A DNA stretch of 64,000 nt from a bacterium (GTDB lineage: Bacteria > Patescibacteriota > Minisyncoccia > UBA6257 > JAGOQP01): assembly GCA_021814695.1 (NCBI GenBank), contig JAKAHY010000005.1:1364-65363 (forward strand). The letters run 5' to 3'. The notes below the pieces were generated by a model, which worked only from the letters and a program-made list of their open reading frames with translations, made no database searches and was not told the origin of the DNA. Below, piece after piece: positions 1,483 to 55,199 of this stretch. Numbering within the stretch: position 1 is the stretch's first letter; each line of letters starts with the position of its first letter. A program made the position numbers and the translations under genes.

Positions 1483-2505
1483 CTATGGCAATACGATAGT
1501 TTCCTTGCTCCTTGTCTCATAAATAATAGAACCGAATCTCAAAGCCAAAAGAATTTCATAAAAAAGAAATGAGAGTCCGGCTATAATCGGACGGATAATT
1601 GGAGAAACTGCCAGAACCGTAAAAAGTACTAGTACCGCCCCGATAATCATAATTATATTCCTGACGCTGGGAGGCAAGGTATTAACCTTATTAAGAAGAG
1701 AGTCATAAAGAGCAGAGGATAATTTTTCATCTACATTTAATTTTCCACCGAATATCCCGCCCAAACGTGACTGCAGGTCCTGAAGGCTGTTATCTATTAT
1801 TTGTTGTCTTTGTATAGGAGTAATTTTATCCTTAAGGGCCGGGTCCTGCTGAATCTGTTGGTCGACCATTCCGATTGCGGTATCTCTCAAAGACTTCGAG
1901 AAATCTACCCCGCCAAAAACGCTGGCTAAGGGTTTGGAAAGAATCTGAAGAGTTGTATTCAAAAGACCTTCGGACAATATAGGATTATTTTTTTCCAGAG
2001 GCTTTGTTGAAAAAACATTAAAGAACAGAACCGCTACGATAACGGCTAAAGCCAGAATGCCGAACTTTATTGAACTATTGGCTACCCTAAAAAATGAAAT
2101 TTTGAGCGAATCATCCAAAGCGGCGCGGGTAATCATTCCTCCACCAACAATTATGACGGCCGCCACCGCAAGCGCTAATAAAAGATTCTGGGAAAAATTG
2201 GCAAAAAAACCCAGGCTAAGCCCTACTGACGAAGCAACCAGCATCAGCGCCAGAAAACTTCTCCGGTTTATAAATACGATCTCGAGAGTCAGAAAAATAA
2301 GAAAGAGGATGACGGCAATGGACAAACCTATTACCGTTTTACTTTCTATGTGCAATTGCTGAAATGCGGCGTTATTTATAAGAAAACCGGCCGCAAATGC
2401 AAATACCGCCGTAAAAAAACCGAGAATCGACGATTTAATATAGGAAAACGCGCCGGTGTAAACACTTGGCGCCGATTCCTTTGGAGTCTGTTGTAATCCG
2501 ATCAT
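1483..2505 (-). CDS. Polytopic membrane protein of unknown function
   Basis: 340 aa with multiple hydrophobic segments. Co-oriented inside the chaperone operon. Confidence 0.5.
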   Translation of the reverse strand: MIGLQQTPKESAPSVYTGAFSYIKSSILGFFTAVFAFAAGFLINNAAFQQLHIESKTVIGLSIAVILFLIFLTLEIVFINRRSFLALMLVASSVGLSLGFFANFSQNLLLALAVAAVIIVGGGMITRAALDDSLKISFFRVANSSIKFGILALAVIVAVLFFNVFSTKPLEKNNPILSEGLLNTTLQILSKPLASVFGGVDFSKSLRDTAIGMVDQQIQQDPALKDKITPIQRQQIIDNSLQDLQSRLGGIFGGKLNVDEKLSSALYDSLLNKVNTLPPSVRNIIMIIGAVLVLFTVLAVSPIIRPIIAGLSFLFYEILLALRFGSIIYETRSKETIVLP

Positions 2506-49745: not shown

Positions 49746-51776
49746 TTATATATCCAGATTCTTCACAGTTGCCGCACGGCTTTGAATGAAGTGTTTTCTG
49801 GGCTCAACTCTTTCCCCCATAAGAATGTCAAAAAGGCGGTCAGCTGCCTGGGCATCCTCTATTTTCACCTGTTTCATAATTCTTGTGGTCGGATCCATTG
49901 TCGTTTCCCACAATTGCTGGGGGTTCATTTCTCCAAGACCCTTATAGCGCTGTATTAAAACGCCTTTGACTTTTTCCTCCCCTCCTTCTTCGGTAGAAGT
50001 TTCAACGTTCTTCTCCTCTTTTTCTTCTTTGTCTTCTTTAGCTTTCTTTTTTGCAGCTTTTGCCGCCTGCATTGAAGCTGAAATTTTATCCTTCTCCTGG
50101 TCGGAAAAAGCATACGCGAACTCTTTTCCGGATTGCACCCTGAAAAGCGGCGGCTGGGCAATATACAAATATCCCCTTTCTATAATTTCTCTAAAATAAC
50201 GGTAAAAAAGAGTCAAAAGAAGAGTGCGAATGTGAGCGCCGTCAACATCGGCATCGGTCATAATTACTATCTTGTGATAGCGGATTTTTTCCACATTAAA
50301 ATCGTTGCCAATGGCAGTCCCAAGAGCAATCACGAGCGATTTGATCTCGTTATTAATAAGCATTTTATCCAATCGGGATTTTTCGACATTGAGAATTTTC
50401 CCTCTGAGCGGCAATATAGCCTGAAATCTCCGATCTCTGCCCTGTTTTCCCGAACCTCCGGCCGAGTCTCCCTCGACAATAAATAATTCAGATTCTGAAG
50501 GTTCTTTCGATGTACAGTCGGCAAGTTTACCGGGAAGCGCCAGTCCTTCCAACGGACCCTTGCGCAATACGGTTTCTTTGGCTGCTTTAGCCGCCTTTCT
50601 GGCCTTTGCGGCCAAAAGACACTTACCCACAATGACCCTGGCTTCAGACGAATACTTTTGTAAGAACTCTTTTAGAGCTTCGGCAACAACAGCCTCAACG
50701 GCGGTTCTGGCGGGAGGATTTCCTAGGCGGGCCTTGGTCTGTCCCTCAAACTGAGGCTCTCTGATTTTTACCGACACAATGGCTACTATGCCCTCTCTCA
50801 CGTCATCACCGGTAAGATTTTCTTCCTTATCCTTAATATAGCCGTTCTCACGGGAATAGTCGTTTAAAACACGGGTAAGCGCGCTGCGAAATCCGGTCAG
50901 GTGCATTCCCCCGTCGGGCGTATAAATATTGTTTGCAAAACTCAACTCCTGAGTCTCGGGATCATTGTCATAGACAAATGTGGCCTCTACCTGTATATCC
51001 TCGTATTCCTTGTTTACATAAAATGGAGTTTCCTGCGCCGTTTCACCAAACTCATTCAAATACGAAAGAAATGAAAGCAATCCTCCTTCAAAACAGAACG
51101 AGTAATATAAGGGAACTTCTTCCCGCTCGTCTATAATTTCAATTGTTATCCCTTTGACCAAGAAAGCCTGTTGCCTTAAATGGTCTATGATTTTCTTCCG
51201 GTCGAATTCTATCTTGGAGAATATTTCCTCATCCGGTTGAAATGTTATTTTTGTACCCGTTGTTTTGGAATTGCCTATTTTTTTGACTTTATACTGCGGG
51301 ATTCCTTTTTTATATTCCTGAATATACGAACCTCCGTCTTTGTTTACTTCCGCCTTCATCCATTTGGAAAGGGCGTTAACAACCGCCGCTCCGACACCGT
51401 GCAAACCTCCCGAAACTTTATATGAATCTCCTCCAAATTTTCCTCCGGCATGAAGCGTGCAGAGAGCCGTTTCAAGAGCGGATTTTTTTGTCTGAGGATG
51501 CACATCAACCGGAATTCCTCGGCCGTCATCCGTAACGGCTACTATATTGTTCTTCAGCAGTTCTACTTTTATATGTTTTGCAAAACCGGCCATCGCTTCG
51601 TCGATAGAGTTATCAACGATTTCCCACACCAAATGATGCAAGCCATCGACTCCGGTGGAGCCGATGTACATTCCTGGGCGCTTTCTGACAGGCTCAAGAC
51701 CCTCAAGAACATAAATGTCCTTAGCGCTATAAGAAGCTCCGTTATTTTGTTCCTTTTTTTCCTCTTTTTTTGCCAT
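49746..51776 (-). CDS. gyrB: DNA gyrase subunit B
   Basis: GHKL ATPase (LHHLVWEIVDNSIDEA), Toprim (EGDSAGGS) and C-terminal tail motifs. Confidence 0.95.
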   Translation of the reverse strand: MAKKEEKKEQNNGASYSAKDIYVLEGLEPVRKRPGMYIGSTGVDGLHHLVWEIVDNSIDEAMAGFAKHIKVELLKNNIVAVTDDGRGIPVDVHPQTKKSALETALCTLHAGGKFGGDSYKVSGGLHGVGAAVVNALSKWMKAEVNKDGGSYIQEYKKGIPQYKVKKIGNSKTTGTKITFQPDEEIFSKIEFDRKKIIDHLRQQAFLVKGITIEIIDEREEVPLYYSFCFEGGLLSFLSYLNEFGETAQETPFYVNKEYEDIQVEATFVYDNDPETQELSFANNIYTPDGGMHLTGFRSALTRVLNDYSRENGYIKDKEENLTGDDVREGIVAIVSVKIREPQFEGQTKARLGNPPARTAVEAVVAEALKEFLQKYSSEARVIVGKCLLAAKARKAAKAAKETVLRKGPLEGLALPGKLADCTSKEPSESELFIVEGDSAGGSGKQGRDRRFQAILPLRGKILNVEKSRLDKMLINNEIKSLVIALGTAIGNDFNVEKIRYHKIVIMTDADVDGAHIRTLLLTLFYRYFREIIERGYLYIAQPPLFRVQSGKEFAYAFSDQEKDKISASMQAAKAAKKKAKEDKEEKEEKNVETSTEEGGEEKVKGVLIQRYKGLGEMNPQQLWETTMDPTTRIMKQVKIEDAQAADRLFDILMGERVEPRKHFIQSRAATVKNLDI

Positions 51777-51905
51777 TAAAATCTATAAAAAGCCACTAAA
51801 AATGGGATCAATTTAACCCCTTTTGTTGATCTAAGATTAGCATATTTTGAGCTAAAAAACAAGCCGGAATTGTGTTAAAACAGGGTAAAAATAGACACGG
51901 AAATT

Positions 51906-51924
51906 TGGGTGGCCTACGGGATTT
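51906..51924 (+). repeat. 19-nt direct repeat of the tRNA-His 3' end (attR-like)
   Basis: gggtggcctacgggatttg is identical to 52050-52068 (T-loop through acceptor 3' end of the minus-strand tRNA-His), 122 nt away. Confidence 0.65.
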
Positions 51925-52049
51925 GCCTCTCGCTCTGCTGAGTCTCGAGACCTTCGCAGCCTCTTCGGCAGCTGCGGCCCGCGGTTCAAATTCTATGAAG
52001 ATTTCCCAGAAAATAATAAGTTCTCCGAAGGGAGAACTTATTATTTCTT
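51925..52049 (-). mobile_element. GC-rich tRNA-His trailer between the tRNA and its 3'-end repeat (scar or mini integrative element)
   Basis: Contains an inverted T-arm-like cgcggttcaaattc (51979-51992) and a strong hairpin taagttctccgaagggagaactta (52016-52039, followed by a T-run on the minus strand) that likely terminates the tRNA-His transcript. Confidence 0.4.
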
Positions 52050-52122
52050 GGGTGGCCTACGGGATTTGAACCCGTGATAACAGTGCCACAAACTGTTGTG
52101 TTACCACTACACTAAGGCCACC
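52050..52122 (-). tRNA. tRNA-His (anticodon GTG); G-1 not encoded
   Basis: rc GGTGGCCTTAGTGTAGTGGTAACACAACAGTTTGTGGCACTGTTATCACGGGTTCAAATCCCGTAGGCCACCC; anticodon stem ACAGT/ACTGT. Confidence 0.7.
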
Positions 52123-52217
52123 ATACAACTTACAAAGACACTATAAATTATCTCAAGATATATTTCAATACCATTTTTCTTGATTTTATCAATAGTTATC
52201 AATAGAATGGATGTATT

Positions 52218-52289
52218 GCCCCCATAGTTCAATGGATAGAACGACTCCCTTCTAAGGAGTAGATCTAGGTCCGATTCCTGGTGGGGGTA
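52218..52289 (+). tRNA. tRNA-Arg (anticodon TCT), non-canonical T-loop TCCGATT
   Basis: GCCCCCATAGTTCAATGGATAGAACGACTCCCTTCTAAGGAGTAGATCTAGGTCCGATTCCTGGTGGGGGTA; G1-U72 wobble. Confidence 0.6.
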
Positions 52290-52368
52290 CATAATCACAA
52301 AAACGACTTTATGATGTTTTTTGCGCTTAACCTCTAAAAGACGCTCTGATGAAGATATAAGGATAAAG

Positions 52369-52743
52369 TTATAAATCAAGTTTTCTACCCTTATAATTTA
52401 AAGCTTCTTTAATAAATTTTTTTTCGTCCCTACTGCTATGCTCTATCAAATGACAGTTAGCGCATAATAAAATACATTTCTTAATTTCGTTTTTTATAGA
52501 ATTCCAACTTTTATTTCCAACATTTCCAAGATTAAATTCTTTATTTTTTGGGTTTGTGTGGTGAAATTGGAAAGCTGATTGATTACCAGACCAACCACAT
52601 TTTTTACATTTTCCTCCAAGATATTTTATTGCAGCTAATTTTGTTCTATATCTCCTAATTTTTGTATTACAAGAACCACATCTGCTTCTGCACTTATTTT
52701 GATAATCTTTAAAATTATTTTTACAAAGCTTACATATTCGCAT
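52369..52743 (-). CDS. HNH endonuclease with N-terminal zinc fingers (homing-endonuclease-like)
   Basis: FQFHHTNP...N...N...KKCILLCANCHLIEH is a canonical HNH motif; CKLC...CGSC...CKKC zinc clusters; the region is markedly AT-rich. Confidence 0.7.
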   Translation of the reverse strand: MRICKLCKNNFKDYQNKCRSRCGSCNTKIRRYRTKLAAIKYLGGKCKKCGWSGNQSAFQFHHTNPKNKEFNLGNVGNKSWNSIKNEIKKCILLCANCHLIEHSSRDEKKFIKEALNYKGRKLDL

Positions 52744-52833
52744 ATTCTCAGTATAACACGTGTCGCTCTACCAAAAAACAGAACATTGCAAAAACGAATC
52801 CTTGTGATAATATTTGTTGGTACATTTAAATAT

Positions 52834-53200
52834 GCCGCGGTAGCTCAGTGGTAGAGCGCATCCCTAAACTCTTTGGGGCTTTTCCGAGTAATCGGGATTG
52901 AAAAATCGGGTGAAATCGGTGGAAATCTCTAAATAAATTTTATTTTTAGACAATACCGAGCCAATCCTTCGCTAAAGCTTCGGATTGCAAGCAAGCTGTA
53001 TCTAAATTTTGCATAGAATAGAAAGTTTGCCTGCCGTAGCCTTCAGCGTAGGCAGGTGTAGAGACTATCCTTTATGGAGTACTCCGGCGGTTCCGCCAGA
53101 GGAAGCGCCCGATCCCCGCCTTTTGGTGGGGAATGATATAGTCCAAAACTCTTAGTCATGGAAGAGGATGGCGTCGGGGGTTCAATTCCCTCCCGCGGCA
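52834..53200 (+). tRNA. tRNA-Phe (anticodon GAA) interrupted by a group I intron between positions 33 and 34
   Basis: 5' exon GCCGCGGTAGCTCAGTGGTAGAGCGCATCCCT (52834-52865). 3' exon GAAGAGGATGGCGTCGGGGGTTCAATTCCCTCCCGCGGCA (53161-53200). Spliced loop CTGAAGA; acceptor GCCGCGG/CCGCGGC. Confidence 0.7.
52866..53160 (+). ncRNA. Group I self-splicing intron (295 nt) in the tRNA-Phe anticodon loop
   Basis: 5' exon ends in U paired to the intron GGGG (P1 CCCU/GGGG with a U-G pair); the intron ends in G (omega-G, 53160). R-like element AGAGACTA (about 53059-53067) and S-like GATATAGTCC (53135-53144) can form P7. Candidate cctgcc/ggcagg helix at 53032-53058. Confidence 0.65.
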
Positions 53201-53206
53201 CAATAA

Positions 53207-53240
53207 AAAACATTCACATTTTAAGTGGATGTTTTTATTT
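53207..53240 (+). terminator. Terminator after tRNA-Phe
   Basis: Hairpin acattcacattttaagtggatgt followed by ttttattt. Confidence 0.5.
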
Positions 53241-53392
53241 GCTGCGGGGAGCGAGCAAACTGATTTGCTTGCGTTAGGGAATTGAACGCCGGAGCATGTT
53301 TCGGCCAGCAGGCAGAAACGCGAGGCGGCGGCTAGACCAATTCGAGCGACGGCGAGAATTGAGTCGGAGCCAATATTATCCCGCGGCACAAT
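53241..53392 (+). mobile_element. GC-rich tRNA-Phe trailer ending in a direct repeat of the tRNA 3' end (scar or mini element)
   Basis: 53379-53392 (tcccgcggcacaat) repeats 53191-53204; inverted T-arm copy gggaattgaacgcc at 53277-53290; composition far more GC-rich than the flanks. Confidence 0.4.
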
Positions 53393-53405
53393 GAACAAAA
53401 AAGCC

Positions 53406-53813
53406 CTAAAAGGCTTTTTTGTTCATCATGACCGATTCCACTAAATCCCCCACGAAAGGTAATTTATACCTTTCGCCTTTATACGCCTTAAACATAGTAA
53501 TCACCCACACCGCAAATCCAAGCAGTGAAAGCAGGCCACCGACAAACCAACCAAAAAATGGAATTATTCCTACGATAAAAGACAGGACATTGAGCGACAA
53601 AAACACGAAGATTGACTGAAGTGCGTGGAACCGAATAAAATCGTTTTTATTTTCTATAACCAGAAAAACAATCCCTCCAACCCAAGCAAACAGATAACAC
53701 AAGACCGCCTCTATATTTTCCGGCAATCCCAATGCCGTCTTCTTGTGATCGGCCTGGGATTCCTTAATTTTATCCCCGTGAACGTGGTTACTCTCTTTTT
53801 TTGTTTCGTCCAT
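53406..53813 (-). CDS. Membrane protein (hypothetical, 3-4 TM)
   Basis: 135 aa; charged N-terminus followed by hydrophobic helices. Confidence 0.45.
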   Translation of the reverse strand: MDETKKESNHVHGDKIKESQADHKKTALGLPENIEAVLCYLFAWVGGIVFLVIENKNDFIRFHALQSIFVFLSLNVLSFIVGIIPFFGWFVGGLLSLLGFAVWVITMFKAYKGERYKLPFVGDLVESVMMNKKAF

Positions 53814-53873
53814 AATATTTTGTTTAACTTATTGAATTATAACCTACCTTGGCTATACTGTATAGGTAAATTA

Positions 53874-53944
53874 CGGGCCGTAGTGTAACGGTAGCACGAG
53901 TGCTTTGGGAGTATTTAGTCCGGGTTCGAATCCCGGCGGCCCGA
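53874..53944 (+). tRNA. tRNA-Pro (anticodon TGG) with C1-G72 pair
   Basis: CGGGCCGTAGTGTAACGGTAGCACGAGTGCTTTGGGAGTATTTAGTCCGGGTTCGAATCCCGGCGGCCCGA; acceptor CGGGCCG/CGGCCCG is perfect. Confidence 0.75.
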
Positions 53945-53950
53945 CTTGAA

Positions 53951-53983
53951 CAAAATACTCTGCCTTGTGCAGAGTATTTTTTT
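53951..53983 (+). terminator. Terminator after tRNA-Pro
   Basis: aatactctgccttgtgcagagtatt followed by tttttttg. Confidence 0.6.
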
Positions 53984-54011
53984 GAGATTCAACCAAGATA
54001 AATCCGACATC

Positions 54012-55199
54012 TTAAACTCTGACCTTCTGCCTGGCTAATGCCGATTTTACTATTCCGTCAACCAATTCATCATAAGATATTCCGGATGCTTGAGCGGCCA
54101 TAGACATAATATCTTCCCGGGCCAAATATGGATTAAGGTTGGCCTCAAGAACGTAAAGCTTGCCGTCATTGTCCATTCTCATATCAATACGGGCATAATC
54201 GCGGACATCCAAGGCTCTGGCGACTTTTACCGCTAAATCGCCCATTTTCTTTTGAATCTCTTCCGGGAGCGTTTTTTTAAGGTCTTGTCCGTAATTAAAA
54301 TCTATTTTTTTGAACTCTTCCGACTTTTCGTCGATTTTGGCCTTGTTGGAATAAATTTTAGGTTTTCCTGCCGGCCATTTGGAAAAATCCAGCTCAACAA
54401 TAGACAGCGGCTTGGCATTACCGTCATCGCCTATAACCGAAACATAAAATTCCCTGCCATCAATAAATTCCTCCACCATAACGTCTCCCCCCAATGTTTC
54501 ATGAAGTTCTTTTACCTTCTTAACCAGAGATTCATAATTATTAGCGACAGAGTTATCGTCAATGCCTATAGAAGCATCTTCTCTAACCGGTTTTACAAAC
54601 AGTGGATATGTAAATCCTTTAGGTACTGCAACGTCCTGGCCGACGCGCACCACGAAAAAATCGGCATACGATATTCGATGGAAATCAAAAATCTTTTTAC
54701 TTACGTGTTTGTCTCCACTCAGAAAAAGCCCTCCCGATGTAGCTCCGGTAAATGGTATCCTGAACATTTCTATTAAGGCGGTAACATTGGAATCGAACCG
54801 GTCGTTGTTTCGGAAAGTTTCAACAAGATTAAAAATTAAATCCGGCTTTGCCTCTCTTATGCCGTTAGTTATCTTGTCGATGCTTTGATTAATCGGCAGA
54901 AGAGCCACCTGATATCCTCGGGATATAAGAACTTCTTCAACATTATCGACAACTTCGTCGTGAGTAGGAATCTGATTGGGATATTCCTGATAGAAAAGAA
55001 TCAGGATTTTTGTTACCGGTTTAGACAACAAATTTTTTTTGACGTCACCATCCCCGGACGAATTTAAAACCGGCGATGAAGGCGTCTGGACATCCATCTT
55101 CCTTGAAGAAATCTTTTGTAATTCCGGTCTGGAATTTAATTGCGTATCGGACATTGTTGTCTTTTTATTAACAATATCATAACGGATATTCAAATACAA
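54012..55199 (-). CDS. ddl: D-alanine--D-alanine ligase-like ATP-grasp enzyme (long N-terminal extension; start uncertain)
   Basis: ATP-grasp motifs (PLFVKPVREDASIGI, EEFIDGREFYVSV, YVLEANLNPYL). Confidence 0.65.
   Translation of the reverse strand: MYLNIRYDIVNKKTTMSDTQLNSRPELQKISSRKMDVQTPSSPVLNSSGDGDVKKNLLSKPVTKILILFYQEYPNQIPTHDEVVDNVEEVLISRGYQVALLPINQSIDKITNGIREAKPDLIFNLVETFRNNDRFDSNVTALIEMFRIPFTGATSGGLFLSGDKHVSKKIFDFHRISYADFFVVRVGQDVAVPKGFTYPLFVKPVREDASIGIDDNSVANNYESLVKKVKELHETLGGDVMVEEFIDGREFYVSVIGDDGNAKPLSIVELDFSKWPAGKPKIYSNKAKIDEKSEEFKKIDFNYGQDLKKTLPEEIQKKMGDLAVKVARALDVRDYARIDMRMDNDGKLYVLEANLNPYLAREDIMSMAAQASGISYDELVDGIVKSALARQKVRV

Follow-up and report, generated by a model that had tools for sequence, protein, structure and literature searches.

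Introduction

To our knowledge, nearly all work on free-standing homing endonucleases has concerned phages. T4 SegB, which is encoded in a tRNA cluster, recognizes a conserved T-arm motif, cuts inside the tRNA genes of SegB-less phages and is inherited together with the flanking tRNA genes, and F-TflI and F-TflII as well as F-TflIV, which are homing endonucleases of the HNH type, are encoded in the tRNA gene region of phage T5 (PMC2330249). T4 MobE mobilizes the neighboring nrdB intron in trans (PMC2790892), and collaborative homing by a free-standing endonuclease and an intron that lacks an open reading frame (ORF) has been reviewed (PMC3984707). Here, we describe a 124-aa HNH endonuclease ORF located between tRNA-Arg and an intron-bearing tRNA-Phe gene in a 64-kb stretch of the Patescibacteria contig JAKAHY010000005.1; this whole stretch is referred to as the window. 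Judging from the comparison of related loci, the ORF and its putative ~40-bp promoter probably form a free-standing homing-type HNH cassette of ~415 bp, which occupies one site immediately upstream of the tRNA-Phe promoter. The cassette is a new, Patescibacteria-specific, chromosomal family of a known kind and not a housekeeping gene.

Like T4 SegB and the T5 F-Tfl enzymes, the HNH protein is encoded by a free-standing nuclease gene embedded among tRNA genes. However, SegB is a GIY-YIG enzyme and thus belongs to another nuclease family, and the HNH genes of the T5 tRNA region show no more than remote similarity (23% identity, E=0.01 to hegA) and were rejected as close homologues. Moreover, the SegB and T5 systems act in phage co-infections, whereas the gene described here resides in bacterial chromosomes. 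As in MobE/nrdB and collaborative homing, the HNH gene stands beside an intron-bearing gene whose intron is immobile by itself, and the likeness to MobE/nrdB extends to the position of the intron within an apparent conversion tract. Unlike in these systems, most copies of either element occur here without the other.

The HNH Gene of the Window

The ORF list places a 124-aa ORF with an ATG start codon at 52369-52743 on the minus strand. A preliminary description of the window had read it as an HNH nuclease, and profile searches agree with annotation as a free-standing HNH (His-Me finger) endonuclease. The match to Pfam HNH PF01844 passes the cut-off marginally (22.4 versus 21.4 bits), PHROG 2255 ‘HNH endonuclease’ is hit with E=1.6e-24, and four further HNH PHROGs match as well. 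The protein is laid out as an N-terminal double CxxC zinc ribbon followed by a CxxC...CxxC HNH core. Alignment of 25 homologues revealed that the motif residues H61, H62, N77, N96, H98, and H102 are invariant, and so are the Cys pairs 4/7, 22/25, 46/49, and 94/97, which makes four CxxC pairs and not the three clusters originally counted. An NCBIfam search with the protein gave noise but no curated family match, and the exact protein has no record in the contig index. Within the window, we found neither a second HNH copy nor any other intron-bearing tRNA.

The AT-richness that had drawn attention to the ORF is pronounced. With a G+C content of 27.2%, it is the lowest of all 375-bp segments in the 64 kb (mean 41.6%, SD 3.6%), and its G+C content at third codon positions (GC3) is 0.177, compared to 0.41 +/- 0.056 and a minimum of 0.325 in the 32 window ORFs of at least 200 aa. 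The shortfall in G+C is found at synonymous sites and can thus not be attributed to amino-acid composition. The placement given in the preliminary description was likewise accurate: the ORF lies in intergenic DNA between tRNA-Arg(TCT) (52218-52290, plus strand) and tRNA-Phe (52834-53201, plus strand), and its start codon is 90 bp from the 5' end of tRNA-Phe. The gene is encoded on the strand opposite to tRNA-Phe, points away from it and is located 122 bp outside the intron.

A Fixed Position Upstream of tRNA-Phe

Using the HNH protein as query, a protein search yielded 381 cluster representatives. The best 120 of these 381 homologues are 68-76% identical to the query and almost all exactly 124 aa long, and every source name that gives an organism for them is a Patescibacteria lineage. 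Over the ~380 homologues as a whole, identity ranges from 65 to 76%, and nearly all are 124 aa long. One source mislabels a family member as McsA; the family is better annotated as a mobile HNH endonuclease than as a conserved hypothetical protein.

A scan of one genome per species provided 71 true loci, one per genome (comparison loci carry L-numbers, L001-L195). In 66 of the 71, the HNH start codon lies 51-225 bp (mostly 73-120 bp) from a divergent tRNA-Phe(GAA). The remaining five comprise two loci in which the tRNA is cut by the contig edge, one that was not evaluable, one (L041) in which the adjoining intron-bearing tRNA is called tRNA-Leu(CAA), and one (L003) in which tRNA-Phe lies ~230 bp upstream of HNH in tandem orientation. 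L003 (1-305), whose tRNA-Phe is intron-bearing, is the only locus with tRNA-Phe in tandem with HNH and not divergent from it, and it carries a duplicated fragment of the tRNA-Phe 3' end between the two genes. The divergent arrangement recurs in four metagenome loci and nine loci sampled by way of a neighboring Hsp20 gene. In all but one (the tandem) of ~85 evaluable loci, HNH stands divergently upstream of tRNA-Phe at a distance of 50-225 bp. The neighbor on the other side varies and can be tRNA-Arg(CCT) or (TCT), tRNA-Val, or a protein-coding gene. Among 68 scored HNH-bearing loci, the tRNA-Phe contains an intron in just 20. Together with the fixed position, this indicates that the gene is tied to tRNA-Phe and not to the intron.

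Presence and Absence Among Close Relatives

The cassette comes and goes among close relatives and is exchanged between lineages. Where near-identical genomes differ in it, the adjoining DNA is replaced along with it, on one side across the body of tRNA-Phe and on the other over ~150 bp. We sampled tRNA-Phe loci by the tRNA sequence alone, using a 26-nt tRNA-Phe pattern that retrieved 120 metagenome stretches, 68 of them with at least 300 bp upstream. HNH was present in four of these 68 loci, each time divergent and at a distance of 91-107 bp. In Hsp20-anchored sampling of one clade, HNH was present in 9 of 14 loci and absent from 5. Empty sites in relatives were found in L195, L210, L214, L207, L096, and L194.

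Comparison of filled and empty alleles delimits the inserted unit. In the pair L209 (with HNH) and L210 (without), the Hsp20 proteins are identical and the flanks are 98-100% identical, yet one locus has the cassette and the other does not. Within this pair, identity is down to 66-82% across the tRNA-Phe gene and to 74-78% in the ~150 bp that follow the stop codon of HNH, after which it recovers; these divergent patches look like conversion tracts. Alignment of L212 with L214 shows a clean insertion of ~415 bp that corresponds to the ORF plus the ~40-bp promoter and extends from the stop codon of a small ORF to 5 nt upstream of the tRNA-Phe -35 box. The filled/empty pairs L009/L096 and L031/L194 agree with this. 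For the window itself, the nearest HNH-less relative is L195 (gyrB 75% identical at the nucleotide level), which has a 48-bp spacer between tRNA-Arg and tRNA-Phe, no HNH and no intron. Comparison of this spacer with that of related genomes had been proposed as a check, and in L195 it is empty.

The ‘empty’ site of L210 contains, ~50-65 bp upstream of tRNA-Phe, the sequence GCCCCGAGATAGCTG, which nearly repeats the 14 nt with which its own tRNA-Phe gene begins, GCCGAGATAGCTCA. This site may be a deletion scar and not a never-occupied site.

Incongruence, Composition, and Selection

Exchange between lineages is apparent for L054 and L056. Their flanks are 94-96% identical, whereas their HNH proteins share 64% and their tRNA-Phe genes 78% identity. 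Both combinations of tRNA-Phe and HNH recur (tRNA 100%, HNH 88-92% identical) in genomes whose flanks are only ~72% identical. Over 714 pairs of loci, the correlation between the identity of HNH and that of the flank proteins is only r=0.39. In 67 of 69 loci, HNH has a lower GC3 than its flanks (mean -0.12), yet this GC3 correlates with that of the host at r=0.85. A low GC3 that tracks the host suggests long residence with repeated import. A mobile cassette would account for the local compositional anomaly of the window and for the mosaic tRNA-Phe alleles that disagree with the genome tree in these bacteria.

The cassette is kept intact by purifying selection and occasionally decays. The ratio of nonsynonymous to synonymous substitution rates (dN/dS) is 0.05-0.08 in close HNH pairs, which shows that the gene is functional. 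Degeneration was observed in L069, which has an in-frame stop and no start codon, and in L070, which has lost the C-terminal motif and Cys46 and was judged a pseudogene.

Selection of this strength could also be expected of a domesticated host gene that serves tRNA-Phe biology, e.g., as a promoter regulator or in processing or repair, and that is inherited vertically with frequent loss. Such a role would fit the strictly conserved position beside tRNA-Phe, the low dN/dS (~0.06), the constant length of 124 aa, the conserved promoter palindrome described below, and the tracking of host GC3. Conserved synteny of a housekeeping kind had been named as an outcome that would speak against a mobile gene, and the position is indeed conserved; the gene itself, however, is sporadic and mobile. 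It is absent from 64 of the 68 tRNA-Phe loci sampled by tRNA sequence and from strains with 98-100% identical flanks, sister alleles can be as little as 64% identical while alleles of distant genomes share 88-92%, GC3 lies systematically 0.12 below the flanks, and pseudogenes exist. In addition, its closest relatives are phage free-standing HNH genes, and no curated NCBIfam family covers it. We therefore regard a host function as the primary role of the gene as quite improbable.

We also considered the type-B tRNA-Phe allele as cargo of the cassette; this was rejected because the Hsp20-anchored sample contains type-B alleles without HNH and because L214 is identical in this gene to the HNH-bearing L212.

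Phage Relatives in tRNA Clusters

Homologues of the HNH protein are present in 479 GenBank phage records, the best being 47.5% identical over 90% of the query. We inspected ten phages, three of Klebsiella, two of Escherichia, and one each of Acinetobacter, Streptomyces, Salmonella, Aeromonas, and Prevotella. All ten homologues lie between tRNA genes, and two directly follow tRNA-Phe(GAA). In Klebsiella phage BIS47, the homologue lies 139 bp after tRNA-Phe(GAA) and abuts tRNA-Met, and in Streptomyces phage CeilingFan, 48 bp separate it from the preceding tRNA-Phe(GAA). Where BIS47 has the gene, Klebsiella phage K54_rec5 has adjacent tRNA-Phe and tRNA-Met genes; K54_rec5 also carries a homologue of its own inside a similar tRNA cluster. 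By their gene contexts, the members of the broader family appear to be free-standing HNH genes that dwell in tRNA clusters.

The phage tRNA-cluster proteins of PHROG 2255, which include those of BIS47, Felix-O1-like coliphages, Lak megaphages, and CeilingFan, share the zinc ribbon and HNH core with the protein described here. The phage genes are located downstream of the tRNAs on the same strand and are apparently co-transcribed with them. In contrast to the phage genes, the Patescibacteria clade is chromosomal, is divergent from tRNA-Phe with the one tandem exception, and has its own conserved promoter and palindrome. Our literature search found no biochemically characterized member in either the Patescibacteria or the phage group.

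Resemblance to phage HNH proteins, adjacency to tRNA genes and partial duplicates of tRNA 3' ends nearby would also be compatible with a defense or toxin nuclease, or with a prophage that had integrated at a tRNA gene and of which a remnant persists. We consider this extremely unlikely. A PADLOC search for known defense-system models gave no match to the HNH protein, the 85 related loci, like that of the window, contain neither an integrase nor any other phage gene, the segment that is inserted measures only ~415 bp, and the gene has no conserved partner, its other neighbor being variable. An independent selfish insertion into a tRNA cluster, one of two possibilities raised in the preliminary description, is strongly supported by the empty sites in relatives, the conflict of the gene's phylogeny with that of its flanks, the GC3 deficit in 67 of 69 loci, and the phage relatives in tRNA clusters.

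Putative Promoter Blocks Between HNH and tRNA-Phe

The DNA between the HNH start codon and tRNA-Phe contains two conserved blocks facing opposite directions. The first (52744-52785, minus strand) is a putative promoter/operator block of the cassette, recognized by its conservation in 69 loci. On the minus strand, it reads GGTAGAGCG (52764-52772), 5 nt, TGT-TATACT, 6 nt, ATG, with the -10 hexamer at 52750-52755. Over the 69 loci, the 30 bp before the ATG follow the pattern GGTAGA[G/A]CA-N4-aTG[C/T]TATACT, 6-7 nt, ATG, with 85-100% conservation per position. The pattern corresponds to an extended -10 box too close to the ATG for a leader, so that the mRNA would be leaderless or nearly so. An imperfect palindrome, GGTAGAGCG-N5-TGTTATACT (52750-52772), overlaps the -10; a perfect version, AGTATAGC-N7-GCTATACT, occurs in L212 and L054, and another imperfect one in L218. 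The block falls within the ~415-bp segment missing from the empty site L214. Its conservation suggests that the cassette has its own promoter plus an operator.

We considered the conserved GGTAGAGC of this promoter as a mimic of the tRNA D-arm, with that arm as the nuclease target, but downgraded this idea. Where the GGTAGAGC arm is variant, it perfectly mirrors the -10 arm (L212, L054), which identifies palindromic symmetry as the conserved property.

The second block is the putative tRNA-Phe promoter (52786-52813, plus strand), consisting of the -35 box TTGCAA (52786-52791), a 16-nt spacer and the -10 box TAATAT (52808-52813). Its general form across loci is TTGCAA, 16-17 nt, TAnnAT. Conservation of the sequence TTGCAAAAA...TTTTTrGTAyTATA upstream of tRNA-Phe extends from loci with HNH to the empty sites L207 and L214, and this block is therefore part of the tRNA locus and not of the cassette. 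The L031/L194 pair had pointed to the tRNA-Phe promoter as a part of the cassette; for the L212/L214 clade this was rejected, since the same promoter is found in the empty site. A generic scan for sigma-70 promoters and terminators called neither the cassette promoter nor the tRNA-Phe promoter.

Proposed Mechanism of Spread

If the unit is a homing-type cassette, its enzyme would cut or nick HNH-less alleles at or near the 5' region of tRNA-Phe, and repair from an HNH-bearing copy would then install the cassette together with flanking markers. The palindrome over the -10 could serve as an operator that keeps expression low, possibly through autorepression. As far as the aligned loci indicate, the cassette is a compact, apparently active example of a free-standing homing endonuclease in the chromosomes of uncultivated bacteria with tiny genomes. 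Natural alleles, both filled and empty, are available by the dozen and show visible conversion tracts, which makes its target and mechanism directly testable.

Several observations weigh against this interpretation. Relative to the shared flanks, tRNA-Phe is inverted in the HNH-bearing genome of three filled/empty pairs (L166/L136, L035/L080, and window/L195), which simple homing does not predict. The tRNA-Phe of L214, which lacks HNH, is identical to that of the HNH-bearing loci L212, L052, and L054, so that any target in this lineage must be at least partly outside the tRNA exons. Only 2 of ~85 copies are degenerate and the intact ones are of near-constant length; this conservation is above what is usual for a purely parasitic gene, and some benefit to the host is possible. 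IMG/VR viral contigs contain no HNH relative that would point to a transfer vehicle between these bacteria. As regards the beta-beta-alpha-metal fold, the AlphaFold2 model is of low quality (pLDDT 63), and its Foldseek matches are weak HNH hits only (Cap5, Gme HNH; E>0.5), while a sequence search of the PDB and Foldseek against the PDB returned nothing informative.

Relation to the Group I Intron

Group I introns in bacterial tRNA genes are known from cyanobacterial tRNA-Leu(UAA) and tRNA-fMet and from proteobacterial tRNA-Arg and tRNA-Ile. Here, in contrast, the host gene is tRNA-Phe(GAA), and insertion is after position 32/33. A review of bacterial group I introns, which refers to studies of tRNA genes in cyanobacteria, of the Anabaena pre-tRNA intron, and of tRNA-Leu(UAA) and tRNA-fMet, nowhere mentions tRNA-Phe (PMC3984707), and group I introns in tRNAs of Patescibacteria have received an anecdotal mention only (PMC8172020).

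The preliminary description had placed such an intron in the tRNA-Phe of the window, and aragorn -i finds an intron there. The gene (52834-53201, plus strand) consists of exon 1 (52834-52865), a 295-nt intron (52866-53160), and exon 2 (53161-53201), with the intron inserted after position 32 according to aragorn -i. Rfam Intron_gpI RF00028 matches 52856-53165 over its full length (1-253) with 48.3 bits and E=8.6e-11, slightly below the gathering score of 50. In the window sequence, the 5' splice site is preceded by U and the intron ends in G. No endonuclease ORF lies inside the intron; the only overlapping ORFs encode 48 and 56 aa, and the 56-aa ORF runs past the intron end. Homologous introns occupy the same tRNA-Phe position in 36 other loci, and the window intron is the longest among the 37 collected. 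In the tRNA-sampled set, 17 of 68 alleles (25%) carry an intron after position 32/33, which is thus widespread in Patescibacteria.

The intron is a separate element and older than the cassette. Most HNH-bearing loci (48 of 68) have an intron-less tRNA-Phe, most intron-bearing alleles in the tRNA-sampled set (14 of 17) lack HNH, and clustering of the introns does not separate those of loci with HNH from those of loci without it. In L164, a full-length HNH match stands beside an intron-less tRNA-Phe whose sequence is the same as the joined exons of intron-bearing alleles, and in L212 and L214 an identical intron-less tRNA-Phe occurs with and without HNH. Nevertheless, the two elements are found together more often than expected. 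Within the tRNA-sampled set, HNH was present in 3 of 17 intron-bearing as against 1 of 51 intron-less alleles (p=0.046). Among alleles with the 26-nt pattern, 17 HNH-bearing loci have the intron and 4 do not, compared to 14 and 50 of the HNH-less loci (odds ratio 15, p=2e-6; this test mixes two sampling frames and carries no phylogenetic correction).

The co-enrichment fits linkage by co-conversion as well as true collaborative homing, in which HNH would recognize a tRNA-Phe without intron at the place in the anticodon loop where the intron inserts, the intron would protect the tRNA-Phe of its carrier, and both would spread as partners. For collaborative homing speak its precedents (PMC3984707), the association itself, the short distance of 122 bp between cassette and intron site in the window, and the fact that one of the four intron-less HNH-bearing exceptions (L070) has a degenerate HNH. 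Co-conversion would, however, produce the same enrichment; the majority of HNH-bearing loci are intron-less, the introns of both classes intermix, and the counter-examples L164 and L212/L214 make collaborative homing less likely as a general rule. On balance, we judge it an unlikely explanation. Since the intron of the window lies inside the tract that is apparently converted along with HNH, it can be carried along in trans, and mobilization by hitch-hiking with the cassette is plausible. The other suggestion of the preliminary description, that HNH could mobilize the tRNA-Phe intron, is thus not supported as a dedicated partnership, given the independent distribution of the two elements and the position of the ORF outside the intron. 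As hitch-hiking in trans, and thus at best indirectly, it is plausible in view of the 17/4 versus 14/50 distribution and the location of the intron in the replaced tract.

For the lineage of the window, a more specific scenario can be drawn, which we offer as a doubtful one. HNH may attack the single-copy, essential tRNA-Phe of cassette-less genomes at or near the intron site, and the linked intron-bearing or variant allele may act as a resistant ‘rescue’ copy, so that the trio of nuclease gene, resistant tRNA allele and ORF-less intron would spread through Patescibacteria chromosomes as a natural cleave-and-rescue or collaborative-homing unit. If true, it would represent a living intermediate on the route to mobile group I introns, in cellular genomes and not in phages. 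In any case, the locus provides a cellular test case for whether a neighboring nuclease gene keeps an ORF-less tRNA intron circulating.

Features of tRNA-Phe and Its Surroundings

Among more than 130 tRNA-Phe genes collected from Patescibacteria (L001-L070, L076-L195), the anticodon loop CUGAAGA, which places G at position 37, is almost universal; a few sampled genes have CUGAAAA. Bacterial tRNA-Phe usually has A37. Intron-less alleles beside HNH possibly have T31-A39 in the anticodon stem in excess; this candidate signal was dropped, the counts being too small and the sampling frames different.

Just after tRNA-Phe, the window contains a GC-rich segment of ~170 nt (53211-53378, plus strand), with 53191-53210 and 53379-53398 as its borders. 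Its end is formed by a 20-nt duplicate (90%) of the 3' end of tRNA-Phe, and it includes an inverted copy that resembles the T-arm. The region 53205-53395 folds strongly, at -81.5 kcal/mol, with the closing helix GCUGCGGGG...CCCGCGGCA. Homologues of the segment with 70-83% identity are present in 10 other Paceibacteria loci, with and without HNH and often just 3' of tRNA-Phe, and no Rfam family matches it at E<=10. The segment is possibly a structured RNA that has not been described so far, or else a small repeat element. On the far side of the HNH gene, the 78-bp spacer between tRNA-Arg and the HNH stop codon (52291-52368) matched only itself in blastn, without a homologue in any other locus; tRNA-Arg(TCT) is the 3'-side neighbor of HNH here, an identity that differs between genomes.

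Rearrangements surround the locus. In L195, a D-Ala-D-Ala-ligase-like ORF, tRNA-Pro, tRNA-Arg, tRNA-Phe, tRNA-His, and gyrB follow each other on one strand. Compared to this order, tRNA-Pro, tRNA-Arg, and tRNA-Phe are inverted and reordered in the window (49746-55199), and an extra gene for a DUF4870 membrane protein is present at 53406-53813. In the window, 21 nt of the 3' end of tRNA-His also recur exactly as a direct repeat (51905-51925 and 52048-52068, 143 bp apart), and between the copies lies a hairpin (52005-52052) with 22-nt arms that are 91% complementary. The repeat looks like the scar of recombination or integration at the tRNA-His 3' end. Taken together, the inversions and the partial duplicates of tRNA-His and tRNA-Phe 3' ends suggest break-associated rearrangements at tRNA genes. 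In L035, a different Cys-rich ORF of 162 aa (1815-2303, minus strand) with weak, sub-threshold matches to HNH and HNH_3 lies beside tRNA-His. This ORF is absent from L080, in which the shared sequence up to tRNA-His is 92% identical, and would be a second tRNA-adjacent nuclease insertion in the same bacterial group.

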